IMG/VR virus record: IMGVR_UViG_3300037502_004185
Location: 1 to 64,000 of that record
Source of the DNA: a virus
Direction: 5' to 3' (one strand)
DNA: 64,000 nucleotides
Shown here: positions 3,087 through 18,938 of the stretch, in pieces
Position numbering within the stretch: the stretch's first letter is position 1
Layout of the letters: each line of letters begins with the position of its first letter
Translations under genes and position numbers: made by a program
Notes under the pieces: model-generated
The model's input: the letters and a program-made list of their open reading frames with translations, nothing else
Told to the model about the DNA's origin: nothing
Databases searched by the model: none

Positions 3087-3120
3087 TTTAGTTTCATTTC
3101 TCTACAGAACTGAAACTAAC
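3087..3120. repeat. 34-bp palindromic site A (inverted copy at 14347-14380)
   Basis: TTTAGTTTCATTTCT-ctac-AGAACTGAAACTAAC. Confidence 0.85.
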
Positions 3121-8557: not shown

Positions 8558-8965
8558 TTAAACACACATTCGTTGGGATACGTTACCGGAGCTGGTGGTC
8601 ACTCGGCCACGAACGCGACCACATACCACATCGCCCGAACCTGTACGAACATCCCCGCCAACGTCTCCGCATTTCACGTTACCCGAGCCAGTGTTAATTG
8701 ACCTTGCCTCATTGCATTGGACACTACCCGAACCAGCATCAATATCGCCTACATCGCCGTTGATATGGATGTTGATATTAACGCTCTTAATATCTTCTTG
8801 TAGCTTGCCGTCCACAAAGACACGACCATCGTTATCTATCGAGATAGAATTACCCTTATAGACCTTGCCGTTGATTCTGATTTCGCTACCAGCGCTAATA
8901 CTTGAGATAGATGCAGCTACTTTTGAAAATCGCAGCTTGCCAAACAGTCTACTTAACCAAGACAT
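8558..8965 (-). CDS. Beta-solenoid (DUF4097/adhesin-like repeat) protein
   Basis: Repeated [TV]GSG[DN]V.CG.V.G units. Confidence 0.6.
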   Translation of the reverse strand: MSWLSRLFGKLRFSKVAASISSISAGSEIRINGKVYKGNSISIDNDGRVFVDGKLQEDIKSVNINIHINGDVGDIDAGSGSVQCNEARSINTGSGNVKCGDVGGDVRTGSGDVVCGRVRGRVTTSSGNVSQRMCV

Positions 8966-9279
8966 ATCAATCCCCCTTTAACGTTTCGATTGGCCTCAAG
9001 CCTCTCGATAAAATCTCTCTGATACGGTTTTAGTTCGAATTGGCCACACGCTTTGACAAAGGCCGTTAGGCTCGGTATTTCGCGCTTAAAGCTGTTGTAC
9101 TGGCGCATAACTTGGCGCGAATACGTCTTACCGCTCCGACCATCGAACAGGCCACCAGCAACGGCGGCCTTTTTGTTTAATGCACTGGCTACACTGACGG
9201 CCAATAAAGACTTTCTATGAATGGCCAGCTCGCTATCGTAATCATCACAAATCACGATGGTTGCTTGTCGTCCTCTCAC
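8953..9279 (-). CDS. Small protein carrying scrambled terminase-ATPase-like motifs
   Basis: RGRQATIVICDD, GRSGKT, ELKPYQRDFIERL. Confidence 0.5.
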   Translation of the reverse strand: MRGRQATIVICDDYDSELAIHRKSLLAVSVASALNKKAAVAGGLFDGRSGKTYSRQVMRQYNSFKREIPSLTAFVKACGQFELKPYQRDFIERLEANRNVKGGLICLG

Positions 9280-9281
9280 TC

Positions 9282-9620
9282 CTATGCCCTCATCCTCTCG
9301 AACTCGATCAATCTTCGAATGGTGGCCATTTCTTCTAGGCATACCGCTTCTTTGTGCATGACCTTGCTAATATCGCGCTTCTCGTACTTGGCTTGTTCTA
9401 TTTTCAGTTCAGCCAGCTTCTTATTGGATTGGCGCACATAGTTGGAAAAGGCGCGCGTTCCGGCCTTAAGCGTTGGTAACTTCTCTTGGATTTCCTTTCG
9501 CAGTTCGAAGAACGCTAACAAAGGCATTTCTTGTTGTGCCTTATATCCTGCTGCTTTCTTCTCAAGTCGTTTGTATTCAGCCTCAAGCGCATCGATGACA
9601 AGTTGCGTTCTACTTCTCAT
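9282..9620 (-). CDS. Hypothetical helical protein
   Basis: ORF in operon. Confidence 0.55.
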   Translation of the reverse strand: MRSRTQLVIDALEAEYKRLEKKAAGYKAQQEMPLLAFFELRKEIQEKLPTLKAGTRAFSNYVRQSNKKLAELKIEQAKYEKRDISKVMHKEAVCLEEMATIRRLIEFERMRA

Positions 9621-9846
9621 AGCTCTTTTGTGCCTCTTTATGGCGCGCTGGCTTCCAAATCCAGCGTTTTGCGCCCAAACCAGTACCAAACAATGACCCT
9701 TGGACATAAACGCCTCTACGGCCAATATTGAGCGTTAACCAGCGTCCACCAATCGAGACGCTAGTAAAGCCAGTTTTGCCAAAGTTAACCCTTATCAGGC
9801 CAAATATTCGGAATGATTTGCGGAAAGTAATGTTCGTTTTTCGCAT
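9610..9846 (-). CDS. DUF4236-like small basic protein
   Basis: FRKSFRI..IRVNFGKTG..S.SIG...GTGL. Confidence 0.7.
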   Translation of the reverse strand: MRKTNITFRKSFRIFGLIRVNFGKTGFTSVSIGGRWLTLNIGRRGVYVQGSLFGTGLGAKRWIWKPARHKEAQKSYEK

Positions 9847-10295
9847 GGTATGTGCTCAAAGTGGTTTGCATTCTTGGTGCGAGTCGCCCCTGTTACTATC
9901 AGGGCGTTATCATCATTGGTGATTGTTGCCATTAGCACCTTTTTGGCCGTATCGGTTAAGTAAGATTCGTTAACGATGATCTTAAAGTTATGTAGACACC
10001 AACCCGCCAGCGCTTCCTCTCGACCACTGCGGTAGTGTTGAAACATGATCGATGGTCGGCCACATGTATCGGCGTTCTTAATGTAAACCTCGCCACTGTG
10101 TTCAACGATTTTCTCTACCATTAGGCAATCTTCAATCAGGGATAGATATTCGTGCTTATCCTGGACTGAGCATACAAACATAACGCGACGTTTGGGATTG
10201 TGCTTAATACAGGCCATCGCAAAACGCATGGCATCAATCTTTGAGTTACTTGCTACCGTGGCAAAGTAGTTCTCTGTATTGGTGATTAGGTTCAT
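9795..10295 (-). CDS. Degenerate paralogue of the PacB terminase ATPase domain
   Basis: RSGREEALAG...IIVNES..D.A..VL...T..DN vs PacB RIGNEEALAG...VIVDEAS..D.A..VL...TEKDN. Confidence 0.8.
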   Translation of the reverse strand: MNLITNTENYFATVASNSKIDAMRFAMACIKHNPKRRVMFVCSVQDKHEYLSLIEDCLMVEKIVEHSGEVYIKNADTCGRPSIMFQHYRSGREEALAGWCLHNFKIIVNESYLTDTAKKVLMATITNDDNALIVTGATRTKNANHFEHIPCEKRTLLSANHSEYLA

Positions 10296-10456
10296 CAAGA
10301 CACCGCCTTAAATATAAAATCCGACATGAGGACGACCAGAACAAGGCCGATCACTATGCGCGGGAACTCGGGCAACTTGATCACATCGAACACGCATTCC
10401 AGCACAAAGAAAATCGCAACAGCCAACCAGAACGCTGGCCAGTTAATCATCTTCAT
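10295..10456 (-). CDS. Small two-TM membrane protein (53 aa, not in ORF track)
   Basis: MKMINWPAFWLAVAIFFVLECVF...IVIGLVLVVLMSDFIFKAVS; overlaps both neighbours. Confidence 0.65.
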   Translation of the reverse strand: MKMINWPAFWLAVAIFFVLECVFDVIKLPEFPRIVIGLVLVVLMSDFIFKAVS

Positions 10457-10949
10457 TACAATCATCATCCGATAAAGGGATTAGTCGTTTTAAACCCGCG
10501 AATGCAGTGGAAAGAGCGATCGCATCCAATGATCGAGGTTTATGGATAGTCCATTGGCCTTTGCCGTTAATAGCCACCAGCTCGCGCTTAATATCATGGC
10601 CAGTATCACTCGCCACCAGCTCTGCTAACTCAAATAAGAGCTTCACACGCGCACTAGCAAAGCGGCTTGTTTCGCCTTGTGGGATGAATACGTTTTGTGT
10701 CTTGGTCTTGCAGCGTAGGAACTCGTAAATGAAGCAGCCGCAACCGTGACTGGACACAACTGCATGATCATCACCAATAAGCGCTAACAGGTTCGCTTTC
10801 CAGTCGTCGTTAAATACCTTGGAAGCGTCCATAAAACGGAAGCCATCCACAATAGGGCGCTCTTGTTCGTTCTTGTGGCACTTGATTTCACATAGGTAAG
10901 GCTGGTTCTTGTGAAAACCAACCGATACAACTCGCATTAGCTTGCTCAT
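10443..10949 (-). CDS. Degenerate paralogue of the PacB terminase RNase H-like nuclease domain
   Basis: VVSVG/LVDVG, VVSSHGCG/AVDSDGVG, SRFASAR/QRFFNQR, AINGKGQW/AINESGQW. Confidence 0.75.
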   Translation of the reverse strand: MSKLMRVVSVGFHKNQPYLCEIKCHKNEQERPIVDGFRFMDASKVFNDDWKANLLALIGDDHAVVSSHGCGCFIYEFLRCKTKTQNVFIPQGETSRFASARVKLLFELAELVASDTGHDIKRELVAINGKGQWTIHKPRSLDAIALSTAFAGLKRLIPLSDDDCNEDD

Positions 10950-11344
10950 CTGGTTAACTCTCTTAGTGTTGTCATTGCAGCTTCGACTTCTTCTTCGTTG
11001 GTGGCATTCACTAGGTCATAAGTTGCTTTTTTGATGCGAATAAGCGTGGCTGTTGGTGTTTGGCCGTTCTCTTTCTGGATAACGATCGAGAATTGCTGAT
11101 TGGGCTCGCTATCCTCGTAATCAAGGAACTGGTAGTTGTTCGCTTTTTTGTGCTTGAAGTAGCCCACGAACACTGCTGCAAAGTTATGAAGCATTGAACG
11201 CTTTAGCTCATCATCAATGTTTTCATCCGTCATGATTTGACAGTATTTCGCAGCCGTACCAGCGTTTAGTTGATGCACTAGGGCGTTAAGTCGTTTGATT
11301 TCGTTTTGTTGTCTTTTAATGGTCGAGAATGGCCAAATACACAT
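10946..11344 (-). CDS. Hypothetical protein
   Basis: ORF with ATGA overlap to the next gene. Confidence 0.6.
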   Translation of the reverse strand: MCIWPFSTIKRQQNEIKRLNALVHQLNAGTAAKYCQIMTDENIDDELKRSMLHNFAAVFVGYFKHKKANNYQFLDYEDSEPNQQFSIVIQKENGQTPTATLIRIKKATYDLVNATNEEEVEAAMTTLRELTR

Positions 11345-11416
11345 AATTTCGGTTCTCTCTGGATCGGGCAAGGCAACGCATCAACGCCACCTTGCGCCAT
11401 AGGGTTAAATCGTTGG

Positions 11417-11650
11417 TTATTTGTTTAACTGACGCTCTGTGTTGCGGCGTAGTACCCAATATTGGGAGTCTGAGGTAGTCATCGCCCAGTCGTGGTAATG
11501 GGCGTTAATGCGTTCGACTCGGCGGCGCTCTTTGATACGGCGCACTTTCTCACTTAAGGCAAGATAGAGCATCCAAGCGGATAGAATGAATATGGTGATT
11601 GCGCTAATCCAAAACGCGATAGATATGAATATGCTAAATGAAAAACTCAT
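11417..11650 (-). CDS. Small membrane-anchored protein
   Basis: N-terminal TM helix, basic tail. Confidence 0.55.
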   Translation of the reverse strand: MSFSFSIFISIAFWISAITIFILSAWMLYLALSEKVRRIKERRRVERINAHYHDWAMTTSDSQYWVLRRNTERQLNK

Positions 11651-11717
11651 GTTTCTTTTACTGTGTGCTGGTGGTTTTGTATTGAGATACCGGCTTTTGC
11701 TGTAACCGGTATTTGGT

Positions 11718-11975
11718 TTACTGAAAGTGACGCACTTCGAACCGTCTAACCTTGGATTCCTCAAGGATTGCTGCTAGTCGGTCTAAGCGCCATTCCCTTG
11801 GCTTATCGTCGCGCGTGTAGCGCACTGAGTAGGCTTTTAGGTCATCGGTAGTGCTATCGATGGCCAACAGGGAAAAACCGCCGCTCGCTTGCTGCTGAGC
11901 GACGACACTGAGCTGGTGGCCATGTTCCACCAGCCGTTTGAACTCACATAATTTAATCGGTGTAATCTTTGCCAT
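11718..11975 (-). CDS. Small plasmid-type protein (ParC/'RepB'-annotated family-like)
   Basis: L..LV..G...GG...R..KPR.W.LD....L.....F.V pattern. Confidence 0.4.
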   Translation of the reverse strand: MAKITPIKLCEFKRLVEHGHQLSVVAQQQASGGFSLLAIDSTTDDLKAYSVRYTRDDKPREWRLDRLAAILEESKVRRFEVRHFQ

Positions 11976-12031: not shown

Positions 12032-12073
12032 ATTATAACCATAGATTTAAGAGTTACAAGGTGTGTTCGGAAT
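12032..12073 (-). promoter_or_regulatory. Promoter of the 11975-8558 operon with adjacent operator
   Basis: TTGTAA-16-TATAAT on the minus strand; GTGTTCGGAAT at 12063. Confidence 0.65.
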
Positions 12074-12093
12074 TAGCGTGTGAGGCTTAAACA

Positions 12094-12925: not shown

Positions 12926-13555
12926 TTATTGCGCCTTTGGCTTTAATGAAATGCCTGTCGTGTACTCTTTCGCTTCGTCGTGGAACGTTCTTAAGTAGTG
13001 GTCAGTCACAGCAACGCTGGAGTGGCCAAGCGCGTCTTTGATCACTTTCAAAGAGGCTTTCTTTTCAAGCAATAGCATGGCGTACATTTTTCGCATCGAG
13101 TGTGTTGATAGCTGGTATGGCAATCTCAACTCCATTGCGATGCGCTTATATGCTCGGTTGATGTACTGGATGCTGATCGCATTACCCTTTTTAGCCAAGT
13201 GGTGATTGGATTGAAACATCAACTCATTATGGCCATTGTGTAAGTAGATACGTTTAATCAGTTTTTCCAGTTCGGCATTAACGTGGATGGTGATTCGAGC
13301 GGCCTCTTTCGCGGCTTTTTCGCTCTTACCTCGGGTCATACGGCCTTTAAAGCCTTTTGACTGAACAATGCTAAATGACGACCTAATCACGCCATTTATC
13401 ATCACATCGCTGAATTTTAGCTTCGAAATGTCGCAATAACGTAAACCTGTACGCACCTCCATTTCAATCATCATCGAGATAAGTGGATTAATGTCATCCA
13501 TTAAACGGATGATTTGTTCCAACTCGTCTAAGTCACGCGCAGGGAAAGCAGCCAT
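12926..13555 (-). CDS. Tyrosine recombinase, catalytic domain only (FimB/FimE-sized)
   Basis: TGLR, STHSMRK (HxxR), LGHSS, TDHY; 209 aa. Confidence 0.9.
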   Translation of the reverse strand: MAAFPARDLDELEQIIRLMDDINPLISMMIEMEVRTGLRYCDISKLKFSDVMINGVIRSSFSIVQSKGFKGRMTRGKSEKAAKEAARITIHVNAELEKLIKRIYLHNGHNELMFQSNHHLAKKGNAISIQYINRAYKRIAMELRLPYQLSTHSMRKMYAMLLLEKKASLKVIKDALGHSSVAVTDHYLRTFHDEAKEYTTGISLKPKAQ

Positions 13556-14346: not shown

Positions 14347-14380
14347 GTTAGTTTCAGTTCTAGGTAGAAATGAAACTAAA
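14347..14380. repeat. 34-bp palindromic site B (inverted copy of 3087-3120)
   Basis: GTTAGTTTCAGTTCT-aggt-AGAAATGAAACTAAA. Confidence 0.85.
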
Positions 14381-14893: not shown

Positions 14894-15058
14894 AAAGCAA
14901 CACTTATAACGTTCTTCTGTTCGTTTTTTATTTAATTCCGAACACAAAAACGGTATGCTACGCATCAAGGATAAAGGTAGGGTTTTTCGTTACTCGCATA
15001 CGCTCAGGGATGGAGTGTAACCTTTATCCTCCAATGTAATTTGGAGCAACCGTTCACC

Positions 15059-15946
15059 ATGATTAATAAAATAAATACTGAAATTAAAGACTTAAAACCT
15101 ATTGATATAGAGACACTTAATCAACTACTTGCAAACAAACAAACGGCAGACGCGCGACTAAAACGTGCCTTGAAGCACAGAGCGACTTTTTCCGAACAAA
15201 TAGATGGCAAGGAAGATAGTGGACTATTCAATGACCGTATCGTAGCTGTAGTAAAAAGAGGTAATCCGACTACCCGTTTACTTGAGTATATTGAGGCAGC
15301 TAAAACGGCCAATAAAGAGCTTTTAGAGCGTGCCCCTCAATACTTCAACAGCTCATCTAACTCATTTAAAGAGACGACCGTAATTGAGAACGTCCGTCGC
15401 GTTAACATCACAATTAATAAAGCAGCTAGCAGCCAGAAAGTAACTGGCGCACGTCTAGCCAAAAGACTTGAAGCATACCTACGCGACCTTGACCGTAAAC
15501 TCTCCTACGATCTTCCAGAAGATGAGAAAGAACAGCTCATAGCTAACAAAAACACTGCATTGAATGAATTGAAATACTTCACAGACAATGCAGACGTTGA
15601 GTTTAGAAAGCGCGGTCAAGAACACAATGATATTGTAGCTATCATTCATACCTATGATGGCAACAATGGTGGCATTTCGCGTGTAGCTAAAAAGGTTCAC
15701 GTTAACGCTGGTGGCCTTGTTCTGATTAGGCATCGTTCTTGTAAAGATCACGATGTGTTAGTCACAAACAATACCACTGAGGGACGTTCGATATATGATG
15801 AAGCTAATGCTTTTAAATCCGTACTGTACCCTAACGCTAACATGTATATTGAAAGCGAAGTCGATGCTATTCGTGAAGCTAGAAAAGAGCTTAGAAACAA
15901 GAACGAAAACAAAGCACGTTCGCAGTTCGATGGATATGTAAACTAA
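15059..15946 (+). CDS. c1: P1 C1-like primary repressor
   Basis: ENVRRVNITINKAASSQKVTGARL, EFRKR and SIYD...YPNANMY resemble P1 C1 as recalled; convergent on pacB; operator at 14935. Confidence 0.7.
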   Translation: MINKINTEIKDLKPIDIETLNQLLANKQTADARLKRALKHRATFSEQIDGKEDSGLFNDRIVAVVKRGNPTTRLLEYIEAAKTANKELLERAPQYFNSSSNSFKETTVIENVRRVNITINKAASSQKVTGARLAKRLEAYLRDLDRKLSYDLPEDEKEQLIANKNTALNELKYFTDNADVEFRKRGQEHNDIVAIIHTYDGNNGGISRVAKKVHVNAGGLVLIRHRSCKDHDVLVTNNTTEGRSIYDEANAFKSVLYPNANMYIESEVDAIREARKELRNKNENKARSQFDGYVN

Positions 15947-16054: not shown

Positions 16055-17554
16055 TTAAGCATCATCCGATTCAAGCGCTTCCAGTACCCATTGTTCTACT
16101 GAATTGCGAGACTCTAGCATGCTCTCTGTCACTTCCATTTCGTGCGGCACATAATCTACCAATTGAGAAAAGCAGTATGTATCCCAACGGTCAGGTGATG
16201 GGATGTTCATTTTCTCTTTCATCATTGGCTTTGGCATCATTACCCATTGGCCTGACTCGTTGATTGCACAGGGTATTTTACTGCCTTGCTCCGCCGTCTT
16301 GACGTTCTTATCTATCTGCATCCGGCCTTGGTTGATAGAATCCCGAGCCATAACATTGGCATAGGCACGTTGGTTAAAGAAACGCTGCTTATCGCTGGTG
16401 GAGTGCATCTTTTTACCCCAACGAATGCGCTGTACGCGCCGTCCGTAACGTTCTAAGCAAGTCGCCGTGTCATAACCAACACCGTCACTATCCACCGCTA
16501 TCGTGATGTTTGGGTACAAGTCCTCACTACACTCTGCATGGATAATGTCAGCAAACCGAACCGGATCGACCGTGCTTGGCTGCTCAAGCAATTTCACGCT
16601 CTTAACGATGCGCTCCATCCGTTGACCCCAAACCTTGCAGATATTGAGTATCGATCTATCTCGACCATTACCCACGTCCACCAGCGCAGCCCACCCCCAA
16701 CCATCGGGCATGTCGAGGTTGAGCCTTGCGCTTTTGTCCAGTGCATCCCGACTAAGCAGCATGCCAGCAATGGAGCTTGGGAACTCCCCACGTACTTTAA
16801 TCAGGTATTCCGGTGCCTCTCGACCGCCATACTCCAATCGCTTATCGAGGATAAACTCCACGGTTACGAACGGCGATTCCTCGGAGTTAAGCCGGATGGC
16901 TCGCCATCGACCGCTAGGCTCGGCTAATCGGTGATGCGTATCGTAGAAATAGCCGCTAGGGCGCGTTGGCTGGCTCAACAACAGCATTCGGTTGTCTTTC
17001 TCGGTCAATGCACCCGCTAACACACCAAAAGCCTTGTCAGAGACGCCTGACGCCTCATCGACAATAACAAACAAGTGTTTAGCGTGTTCACCCGCCAGCG
17101 CTTCCTCGTTACCAATACGGCACGATTTAGCACTGGTTTGCCAGATACCTTTTGCTGAGTTTTCAAAAAAGGCTGTCTCGGTAATGGTGAAGTATTGCTG
17201 TAACCAGCCGTGCTTTTGTAACAGCGTGTTCCAGTTGGACTTTAGATACTTCCATACACCGATTTGTACCTGTCTCGCGTTGTTCGCCACCAGCACAACA
17301 CGCGCATTGGGGAAGCAGAGCATGAAAGCAATGATCATGATACTGGTCATGTCTGACTTACCTGTACCGTGGCCAGAGCTGACGGTCGTTCGCGCACCAA
17401 TACGCTGAGCACTATCAATGATTTTGCGCTGCTGCCAGCTCGGCTTCTTACCGACTAGCTCAACAGCGAGGCGTTTCCAGTCATAGCGATAACGCTTAAC
17501 TAGGGCAGGGTAACGGGGATCTTGTGTTACGCTCTTTATTCGTCTAGCCACCAA
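16055..17554 (-). CDS. pacB: Terminase large subunit
   Basis: SGHGTGKS, VIVDEA, C-terminal nuclease DVG...DSDGVG...SPDRWD. Confidence 0.95.
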   Translation of the reverse strand: MVARRIKSVTQDPRYPALVKRYRYDWKRLAVELVGKKPSWQQRKIIDSAQRIGARTTVSSGHGTGKSDMTSIMIIAFMLCFPNARVVLVANNARQVQIGVWKYLKSNWNTLLQKHGWLQQYFTITETAFFENSAKGIWQTSAKSCRIGNEEALAGEHAKHLFVIVDEASGVSDKAFGVLAGALTEKDNRMLLLSQPTRPSGYFYDTHHRLAEPSGRWRAIRLNSEESPFVTVEFILDKRLEYGGREAPEYLIKVRGEFPSSIAGMLLSRDALDKSARLNLDMPDGWGWAALVDVGNGRDRSILNICKVWGQRMERIVKSVKLLEQPSTVDPVRFADIIHAECSEDLYPNITIAVDSDGVGYDTATCLERYGRRVQRIRWGKKMHSTSDKQRFFNQRAYANVMARDSINQGRMQIDKNVKTAEQGSKIPCAINESGQWVMMPKPMMKEKMNIPSPDRWDTYCFSQLVDYVPHEMEVTESMLESRNSVEQWVLEALESDDA

Positions 17555-18938
17555 GTACCTCGAAGCTGTCTACATCGTCAAACCCCGACACTCCCTCGTT
17601 ATCGAGGTCATCATAGGCTTGCTCTTTAGCGGCTTCGTTTTGTATTTGGGATGGGGATAGGGTAGGTTCTACGCCGTTCTCTAGGTCTTCGGCTTCTTTG
17701 ATTCGTCGGTTTACTTCTTCTTTACGCGCTGGTAGCCAGTTATCTTGCTGCTCAATCTGCTCTAACGTGTAGTCATCAAACAGCTCATCCAGCTCTTGCT
17801 CACTGATACCAGTGTCGTCTACTTCTGGCTCTAGGTTCGCTAGCTCTACCTTAGCTTCATGCAATAGCGTTGCTGGTGGACGTGCGCCTAACTTCTCGAT
17901 TTGTTGGCACGTCTCTAAGGCTGTCCAGTTGTTCTTAGTACGCAGAGAAAGCATTTCTATTACTAGGCTGGTTTCTTCCGCTGGTAGTAGGTGCGGCATC
18001 ATCAATTCAGCGTATTCCTGTTTACGCAAATCGATGTAGCGCTTGGCCTCTTGTTTGGCCATCGTGGAAATACTCAATTCCAGTTCACGCAATCTGGTGC
18101 CATAGCCAAAGATGAGACGGTCACGCATGGCGTTAATGTCTACTGGTTCATTCTCATCATCGAGCGGGATGTTTCCGGTTTCCTCCATTTCATCGATCTC
18201 TTTAAGACGCTTGGCCAACGTCTCATTCATTCGGTAATACTGCGAACGGGCAATAATCAGCTCGTTGCAAACCGAAAGCGGATCGGTGTCCATGAGAATA
18301 TCCATGATTTCGCCAGTAATACCCGCACTACGGGCATAACCACCATGCACAACAGGGCGACCCACTTGAGCACTGGAATACTGCGAAAGCCCCTCAACTG
18401 ATCGCGGCTTGCGCAGTGATCCAATCCCCCCTGTTTTCGCGCGATCGCCTTGCGCACTTTGCGCTTGCGCAGTTGCACCCGCTTGTTTGGGCTTTGATTT
18501 ATCAGCCCTTTTTTTCTTCTTGTCGTTTTTCGCTTCTTGATATTTCGCTAATTGCTCATCGTAAAGATCAAATAATCGATCAAACTCAGGCAGCGATCGC
18601 ATGGAGTTGAACTGGCGGCGCAGTGTCGAACCGTTCACCCCTTTATCTTTCGCAAAAGCGGCCATCGTGAGCGTTGGATTTTGAGCGCCACGCACGAGAA
18701 ATTCTTTCAAAAGGGAATGCCAGTCATTGCCCTGACTGGTCTTTTTCGCTTTGATTTTTGGCATGACGGACGGTTGGAACTTACCGCCCTTTTTGGCTGG
18801 CCGTTTTATATATCGCTTAGCGGTGCCGTACTTTAGTCCGTTGGCTTCGCAATACTCGGCCAGCGTCAAAGTCGGCTGCTTCTCTAACTGCTCCCAAAAC
18901 TGCTGTTGGTGAGCCTGATAGTCAATCTTGCCGGACAC
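17544..18938 (-). CDS. pacA: Terminase small subunit
   Basis: N-terminal HTH repeats, HGGY motif, directly upstream of pacB. Confidence 0.8.
   Translation of the reverse strand: MSGKIDYQAHQQQFWEQLEKQPTLTLAEYCEANGLKYGTAKRYIKRPAKKGGKFQPSVMPKIKAKKTSQGNDWHSLLKEFLVRGAQNPTLTMAAFAKDKGVNGSTLRRQFNSMRSLPEFDRLFDLYDEQLAKYQEAKNDKKKKRADKSKPKQAGATAQAQSAQGDRAKTGGIGSLRKPRSVEGLSQYSSAQVGRPVVHGGYARSAGITGEIMDILMDTDPLSVCNELIIARSQYYRMNETLAKRLKEIDEMEETGNIPLDDENEPVDINAMRDRLIFGYGTRLRELELSISTMAKQEAKRYIDLRKQEYAELMMPHLLPAEETSLVIEMLSLRTKNNWTALETCQQIEKLGARPPATLLHEAKVELANLEPEVDDTGISEQELDELFDDYTLEQIEQQDNWLPARKEEVNRRIKEAEDLENGVEPTLSPSQIQNEAAKEQAYDDLDNEGVSGFDDVDSFEVLGG
18400..18598. other. Predicted pac packaging site within pacA
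   Basis: Three GATC, about 120-bp spacer, three GATC; P1 pac has this architecture inside pacA. Confidence 0.55.

Follow-up and report, generated by a model that had tools for sequence, protein, structure and literature searches.

A catalytically defective relative of the PacB terminase ATPase core and its probable nuclease-half companion in a Vibrio P1-like phage-plasmid

The 64,000-nt stretch of DNA considered here (the window; positions 1 to 64,000 of IMG/VR virus record IMGVR_UViG_3300037502_004185) is part of a 91.8-kb IMG/VR provirus record, and the element to which it belongs has the hallmarks of a Vibrio P1-like phage-plasmid, a type of element that is an important vehicle of transduction and of resistance genes. 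In addition to a functional large terminase, PacB, it carries an open reading frame (ORF), hereafter A, that is a genuine relative of the PacB-type large-terminase ATPase core and lacks the catalytic motifs. A second ORF, hereafter N, lies upstream of A in the same operon and is probably a degenerate nuclease domain of a large terminase (TerL). Both are real, selected and dispensable accessory genes located in a variable region beside a recombinase/lox module. The combined statement that A and N together represent an ancient PacB-type pseudo-terminase, split into its two halves, inactive, and acting by binding to a partner of TerL has, in our judgment, an even chance of being correct. The features on which this account depends are the following:

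9795-10298 (TTG start; likely ATG at 10295), minus strand: A, 167 aa, inactive paralog of the PacB-type TerL ATPase core
10443-10949, minus strand: N, 168 aa, probable degenerate TerL nuclease (RNase H-like) domain
10295-10468, minus strand: 57-aa ORF located between N and A, coding for two hydrophobic helices
16055-17554, minus strand: PacB, functional large terminase with intact Walker A/B motifs and conserved Asp residues, used as the reference for comparison
17544-18938, minus strand: PacA, small terminase subunit (phrog_370, 2e-69)

The ATPase-core relative and its nuclease-like companion

An earlier sequence-only reading of the window had called both ORFs (with A at 9795-10295), which indeed stand on the minus strand, and had aligned A with the ATPase domain of PacB, an alignment that holds in several comparisons. 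BLASTP pairs residues 90-147 of A with residues 146-203 of PacB (36% identity, E 6e-6), and hhalign of the A-family profile against 27 PacBs returns a probability of 95.8% (E 8e-9). A hidden Markov model (HMM) of the PacB ATPase gives 27 bits to A and 14 bits to its V. campbellii homolog, which is 33% identical, and 0 of 500 shuffles reach either score. Residues 9-145 of A match positions 25-160 of the 297 positions of phrog_30441 (E 5e-30), the C-terminal half of that profile, known as the phrog_5928 domain, being absent from A. Moreover, A matches the N-terminal family of PacB, phrog_5902, at 2.7e-5, and the resident PacB reciprocally matches phrog_30441.

A and PacB share the RecA-like core, i.e., the RxGNEEALAG helix, the Walker B strand and the helix and strand that follow, up to the TxxDN block, whereas the first ~50 residues of PacB (the Q-motif region) and its lid (PacB ~200-270) have no counterpart in A. 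The destruction of the Walker motifs, also proposed at the outset, is borne out by the alignments. The P-loop of PacB (SGHGTGKS) faces VASNSKI in A, and no member of the A family possesses a glycine-rich loop. Likewise, VDEA in the Walker B region of PacB aligns with VNES in A, the IVDE of PacB being replaced by IVNE in the window, by INGD in CP050480 and by IASGD in CP046830, with the Glu lost too in relatives. The GxxEALAG block is invariant across live and dead proteins. At the nucleotide level, A (10002-10032) and pacB (17090-17120) share 26 of 31 nt over the EEALAG codons, including 18 consecutive identical positions, and all synonymous positions of these codons are identical, which could be due to codon bias or be the trace of a gene conversion.

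An AlphaFold model of A, built from a 5-row alignment (pLDDT 69.5, pTM 0.70), has TerL ATPase domains as its top Foldseek matches (PhiV-1 TerL 8dgc_E, 4znj and 4ife, with P74-26 and Sf6 among them). Structural re-alignment yields a Z of 9.8 to Sf6 gp2 over 129 residues (rmsd 3.2) and of 8.6-8.9 to the TerLs of PhiV-1, P74-26, T4, and D6E. Domains of SF1/SF2 helicases are similarly close (Z 8-9) and thus tied with the TerLs; the assignment of A as a TerL relative therefore comes from the sequence evidence, the fold alone being simply RecA-like. Searches for A and N in Pfam returned no match, an uninformative outcome since the genuine PacB nuclease domain was missed too, and none was found in a sequence search of the PDB or among 50,697 phage records queried by tblastn. 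Longer homologs of A with a fused domain were also sought without success, although a 297-aa fusion exists in plasmids (see below). Prediction of an A + N complex gave a score of 0.00, which is no verdict and weighs neither way.

N is the less certain member of the pair. BLASTP against the PacB nuclease domain gives a best E of 0.17, which is not significant, hhalign against full-length PacB gives a probability of 0.8%, and the PacB-nuclease HMM scores N at -0.6 bits, a score that 36 of 500 shuffles attain (p ~0.07). A greedy profile alignment of the N family with the PacB nuclease domain nevertheless runs colinearly along 151 columns and reproduces all four motif pairs on which N had been matched to this domain in the first place. 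Its score of 22.8 (P 0.009) is equalled by 2 of 200 column shuffles, and a reversed control comes close at 21.4. Under this low-confidence alignment, the acidic nuclease residues of PacB (D293, D355 and the SPDxxD motif) are unmatched in N, D293 facing S9, D355 facing S66, and D357 facing H68; the Asp-to-Ser changes proposed earlier are thereby found at two positions, next to a change to His.

Further indications come from relatives and from the ESM-Atlas. The V. campbellii plasmid CP050480 codes for a 183-aa homolog of N (23% identity, E 4e-4) located directly upstream of, and overlapping, its A homolog, and this protein matches the PacB nuclease HMM at the DxDGxG strand (VTVNAQGIGSG vs IAVDSDGVGSD) with 0 of 500 shuffles as good. 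The adjacency of N and A is thus found in two lineages whose proteins share just 23-33% identity, although CP050480 has no 57-aa ORF between the two homologs. In the ESM-Atlas, 26 of the 30 nearest named clusters to N carry Terminase_6C (score 0.94). The last line is the split dead PacB pair of an enterobacterial P1-like phage, L012 (see below), which is more clear-cut than that of the window. A phmmer search of N against 1.8 billion representatives recovered near-identical Vibrio proteins only, plus spurious giants with Ig repeats; the long matches of clusters P0009-P0012 were discarded as eukaryote-type Ig/AIR9 repeat proteins with a spurious, repeat-summed score. Diverse homologs sought in viral, metagenome and representative sets likewise came down to near-identical sequences. 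Taken as four weak and concordant lines with no significant alignment, these data make it likely that N is a degenerate TerL nuclease domain.

Divergence, selection and optionality

The ORFs had been described as copies of the phage's own terminase, a view that is not supported. In a tree of the ATPase core, PacBs differ mutually by no more than 0.6 substitutions per site, whereas the branches of the dead paralogs measure 2.3-3.7 (2.3 for the Vibrio A family, 3.1 for the enterobacterial paralogs). Given such long branches against so narrow a spread of PacBs, A and N appear as ancient and highly diverged paralogs, not as recent copies of the resident PacB. The dead groups may share a single origin (support 73/65, with a risk of long-branch attraction). 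A full-length PacB and an A-like paralog are both present in 4 of 4 related virus records. The reversed order of the domains, N preceding A, is most simply explained as the kept junction of a tandem pacB duplication of which the outer halves were lost.

Ratios of non-synonymous to synonymous substitutions (dN/dS), computed against three relatives at 90-97% nucleotide identity, are 0.10-0.30 for A and 0.11-0.14 for N (Fisher p 0.016 to 3e-13), a strong synonymous excess similar to that of the neighboring genes and the mark of purifying selection. Intact homologs of A and N at 23-39% identity occur in other Vibrio lineages, and the main intact cluster of A comprises 104 member sequences on 16 contigs. 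Meanwhile, the pair is optional. Among 10 Vibrio plasmids of PLSDB whose PacB is at least 98% identical to that of the window, only 2 carry A; N was likewise detected in 2, besides a single broken copy. In CP054704, N is broken by several stops and by frameshifts and A is deleted, while the 57-aa ORF and the DUF4236 gene are kept. In CP082321 and CP119337, a frameshift removes the last ~40 residues of N, and the clusters P0004 and P0005 (A) as well as P0007 and P0008 (N) are frameshifted or truncated.

These broken alleles, together with the absence of A/N from the majority of close relatives, bear on the explanation that both ORFs are mere remnants of an old pacB duplication, now functionless and in decay. 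The sequence-only reading had itself named frameshifts in relatives as the sign of pseudogene relics, and that sign is partly present. The highly significant synonymous excess is at odds with neutral decay, as are the intact homologs persisting in distant Vibrio lineages, the size of the intact A cluster and the retention of start/stop overlaps and Shine-Dalgarno sites in the operon. Because intact alleles have a dN/dS of ~0.1, the frameshifts are read as the loss of optional genes and not as decay, and decay without function is accordingly very improbable. The pattern is that of a swappable accessory gene, not of a neutrally drifting relic.

The gene content of the operon is mosaic, gene by gene. 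The contig of one relative lacks 9400-10444 and 10501-11800, and hence both A and N. Contigs assembled from public RNA-library runs, which document variants of gene content and not expression, show deletions and replacements that vary within the operon; for instance, 8899 is joined to 9711 in one case, and 10501 to 11800 via 17 other bases in another. Beside the operon, the first 6000 nt of L002 (NZ_CP054704.1, 1-6000) hold an integron-like cassette array in which DUF3265 repeats separate cargo genes coding for a cytidine deaminase, Abi, HIT, RelE/RelB, HTH-PIN and restriction endonuclease proteins. The region flanking the operon is a hotspot for accessory and defense genes.

Relatives of A beyond the immediate group show two other arrangements. 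On the one hand, pVv01-type plasmids (CP046830; V. owensii contig JPRD01000044) code for a 297-aa protein that is homologous to A in its first 160 residues (39% identity, E 7e-31), with the same loss of the Walker motifs. The remainder of this fusion protein is a phrog_5928 domain of 120 aa; it bears a D...E-x-K motif and, judged from this motif, may be VRR-NUC/PD-(D/E)xK-like. The gene overlaps that of a 583-aa SNF2-family helicase, to which it is translationally coupled (the pair lies at 4926-7567 in L003, NZ_CP046830.1, and at 5926-8567 in L011). Unlike in the window, no N-like gene was recognized upstream of it. On the other hand, the enterobacterial P1-like phage L012 (IMGVR_UViG_3300036817_000176) carries a split dead PacB pair in the normal domain order. 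Its ATPase-like protein (249 aa) is 31% identical to PacB over 245 aa, with ETDGMGRSR at Walker A and DN at Walker B. Its gene is overlapped by a 177-aa ORF with a match to the PacB nuclease domain (BLASTP E 0.002; 10.5 HMM bits; 0 of 500 shuffles as good). In the order of L012 (18-4620), an MT-A70 methylase gene and a 102-aa ORF precede the dead ATPase paralog, followed by the dead nuclease-domain ORF, further genes and a VRR-NUC gene. The Leclercia plasmid pM17-63 has a 244-aa dead ATPase paralog with an HTH regulator in place of the nuclease-like ORF. Both enterobacterial paralogs, degenerate and ATPase-only and located in an early or accessory region, resemble A in these respects and differ from it by their normal domain order, their retained lid and their much closer relation to PacB.

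Possible modes of action and nearest known systems

Compared with PacB of P1 and P1-like phage-plasmids, in which a single polypeptide carries the ATPase at its N-terminal end and a nuclease domain with which N is colinear in a low-confidence profile alignment, the window has separate ORFs in the order N, 57-aa ORF, A, which are optional and belong to an accessory region outside the packaging operon. As neither ATP hydrolysis nor DNA cleavage would be possible for A and N, the two would act by binding. Under the explanation that we favor, they would mimic surfaces of TerL and thereby engage PacA, the TerL ring, the portal or pac DNA, the target being the terminase partner of their own element or that of a rival phage or satellite, and packaging would be modulated or disturbed as a result. 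From its motifs, the A/N operon would presumably be switched on early in lytic growth, once the repressor is lifted. Although favored, this mimicry toward a TerL partner remains somewhat short of an even chance as a part of the combined statement. The sequence-only reading had offered dominant-negative inhibition of packaging as its alternative, and such interference may occur. What A/N display is the loss of ATP-binding and catalytic motifs, the retention of part of the TerL surfaces, purifying selection, optionality and a promoter flanked by an operator-like motif.

Several points weigh against the combined statement. Early, repressor-controlled expression is read from motifs alone. Members of the A family differ at the Arg of the RxG motif, with Pro in the pVv01-type protein, which weakens the idea of an "arginine-finger poison subunit." No single test of the TerL ancestry of N is significant, the reversed-sequence control of its alignment scores nearly as high as the alignment itself (21.4 vs 22.8), and its AlphaFold2 single-sequence model is unusable (pLDDT 41). 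Frameshifted alleles are frequent. Finally, the fusion of A and its coupling to SNF2 in pVv01-type plasmids suggest DNA metabolism over packaging.

This last point leads to the explanation that A is a neofunctionalized accessory of DNA metabolism, its dead ATPase-like domain serving as a structural or DNA-binding module for early enzymes of recombination or replication, such as an SNF2 helicase and a VRR-NUC-type nuclease, in a role unrelated to packaging or immunity. The position of the dead paralog between an MT-A70 methylase gene and a VRR-NUC gene in both L012 and the Leclercia plasmid agrees with such a role, as does the fold of A, which is as near to SF1/SF2 helicase domains as to TerL. 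The operon of the window, however, has neither a helicase nor a nuclease gene, the nuclease nature of phrog_5928 is read from its motif only, and N accompanies A in the Vibrio 92-kb type, a sign that the pair may still work as a terminase-like unit. We consider a role in DNA metabolism unlikely, if less so than the other alternatives.

Small phage proteins with a TerL-like fold have also come to light in work on bacterial immunity. T4 vs.8 as well as Ksap1 and Ksap2 are non-terminase phage proteins whose TerL-ATPase-like fold is unexplained (PMC13601566, PMC11564622). Like A, they are small, related to or shaped like the TerL ATPase, additional to the real terminase and restricted to a lineage, a likeness drawn from fold and description. 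vs.8 differs in that it keeps both Walker A and Walker B and activates EcAvs2 (PMC13601566), whereas A is devoid of both motifs, and a companion relic of the nuclease domain is not reported for vs.8 or the Ksap proteins.

The same work bears on the idea, put forward by the sequence-only reading, that A and N serve as immune decoys or inhibitors. Expressed early, they would occupy the terminase sensors of the host (Avs1-3, Upx), leave them inactive and so shield PacB. Both resemble a TerL that has lost its activity and stand behind a promoter that is probably early, and their patchy distribution in a variable region is one often seen with anti-defense genes; the neighborhood in CP054704 includes the cassette array with its Abi, restriction, PIN and toxin-antitoxin genes. 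For vs.8 and Ksap1/2, as TerL-like non-terminases, an anti-defense role is raised as a speculation in PMC13601566, and the top Foldseek match of A is the TerL chain of an Avs3 complex (8dgc_E), a match that reflects fold only. Known sensors, however, read the very features that the pair has lost. SeAvs3 reads active-site residues of TerL and bound ATP, and EcAvs2, which recognizes the ATPase domain, seals its interface by a bridging ATP at the gamma-phosphate/Mg site of TerL (PMC13601566). Since A has no P-loop and N no acidic residues, these contacts are missing and tight binding to a sensor is not expected, which would also explain a failure to trigger it. Furthermore, binding activates in the known systems, vs.8 and Ksap1 triggering Avs2 instead of blocking it. 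A search of A, N and their operon neighbors with the defense models of PADLOC-DB (E <= 0.01) gave no match, barring weak coiled-coil matches of the 147-aa protein of the operon, and no match to known anti-defense models emerged either. Mimicry toward a TerL partner is therefore preferred over the soaking up of host sensors, which we hold to be quite improbable. The wider proposal that the dead PacB paralogs of P1-like phage-plasmids form a family of decoys, early, ATP-blind and nuclease-dead terminase halves that would occupy or disturb TerL-fold sensors (Avs1-3, Upx) without triggering them, is a long shot; if true, no structural decoy of a conserved phage pattern would have been known before them.

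Small non-enzymatic proteins that bind terminase components are known from phage satellites. Ppi of SaPIs and Rpp of PICIs redirect or block packaging in this manner; they target the small terminase and are not derived from TerL. Their resemblance to A/N is a functional analogy only, and no homology is claimed.

A search of the literature for terminase decoys, for inactive or split terminase paralogs in phage-plasmids and for truncated large terminases found no description of such proteins, the nearest published items being vs.8 and Ksap1/2 (PMC13601566, PMC11564622). The locus combines strong divergence, a reversed domain order, an intervening two-helix hydrophobic ORF and an operator-guarded promoter. 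To the dead ATPase paralogs it adds a probable companion relic of the nuclease half in reversed order and a connection with relatives that carry a fused VRR-NUC-like nuclease. Copies of a packaging motor that are selected as pseudoenzymes imply that the terminase fold has another use besides catalysis. Modulators of packaging, competition or immune visibility in P1-like phage-plasmids are relevant because these elements are vehicles of transduction and resistance, and A/N and their relatives supply constructs with which decoy, interference and DNA-processing roles can be tested.

Operon layout and element context

The A/N operon lies downstream of the recombinase gene, on the minus strand, and its features are listed here in the order of transcription (A, N and the 57-aa ORF are given above).

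12062-12075, minus strand: operator-like motif TAATTCCGAACACA, abutting the -35 hexamer directly upstream
12032-12059, minus strand: promoter-like site TTGTAA-16-TATAAT (10/12 matches), probable start of the operon
11718-11975, minus strand: 85-aa gene, first of the operon, no function assigned (dN/dS 0.11-0.19)
11417-11764, minus strand: 115-aa ORF with a hydrophobic segment, no function assigned
10946-11371, minus strand: 141-aa gene, whose stop overlaps the start of N (ATGA)
9610-9846, minus strand: DUF4236-like 78-aa gene (phrog_24584, 6.7e-12; annotation in relatives)
9282-9725, minus strand: coiled-coil protein of 147 aa if started at TTG (a relative is annotated with 113 aa)
8953-9342, minus strand: 129-aa gene, whose C-terminal LKPYQR motif is also found in a 197-aa CP050480 protein
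8558-8965, minus strand: 135-aa repeat-rich protein (phrog_3163), last gene of the cluster

The sequence-only reading had described translationally coupled ORFs in reversed order, separated by a 53-aa membrane gene and controlled by an operator. The coupling agrees with the overlaps at the junctions, i.e., ATGA between the 141-aa gene and N, 26 nt between N and the 57-aa ORF, and TGATG between the latter and A. The hydrophobic gene between them is present as described except for its size, 57 aa. Operator control is likewise upheld at the level of motifs. TTGTAA-16-TATAAT is the sole strong promoter-like site and lies upstream of the 85-aa gene, and the motif TAATTCCGAACACA, also written (T)AATTCCGAACACA, occurs at 10 sites in the window (3587, 12062, 14933, 20113, 22406, 24969, 31900, 36726, 40050, and 59007) against 0.47 expected. 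One of these copies (14933-14946) is found 95 nt upstream of the gene in the c1 position. The operator consensus of P1 C1 was searched for in the window and is absent; the dispersed motif is probably the operator of the master repressor of the element, with a sequence of its own, and would be an analogue of the P1 C1 operator.

Two neighboring genes were tried as carriers of missing parts of TerL. The 129-aa ORF was rejected as the carrier of the Q-motif segment, as 188 of 500 shuffles equal its score with the PacB N-terminal HMM and BLASTP is not significant, and the match of the 141-aa ORF to the PacB lid region (210-247), at -0.7 bits, is not significant and too weak to use. The coiled-coil protein is kept beside the A family in CP050480 and matches a 118-aa protein of L004 (E 5e-18). 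The 135-aa protein is built of G-D-V/G-S-G repeats and has no Pfam match; its repeats suggest a beta-helix or bactofilin-like protein.

The surroundings of the operon include the following features:

15041-15946, plus strand: 301-aa gene, candidate master repressor, convergent with pacB and with an operator-like site upstream
14347-14380: lox-like site of 34 nt
12926-13555: small tyrosine recombinase gene

The PacB of the window is 98-99% identical to those of plasmids from V. alginolyticus, V. diabolicus, and V. parahaemolyticus and 55-57% identical to P1-type terminases of enterobacteria. In position and orientation the 301-aa gene corresponds to c1 on the map of P1, and the P1 region equivalent to that of the operon carries ref/mat/res/mod. 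Two lox-sized inverted repeats of 34 nt (3087-3120 and 14347-14380), 88% complementary, bracket 11.2 kb that hold the small tyrosine recombinase gene and the entire A/N operon, and this stretch could be an invertible or exchangeable segment.

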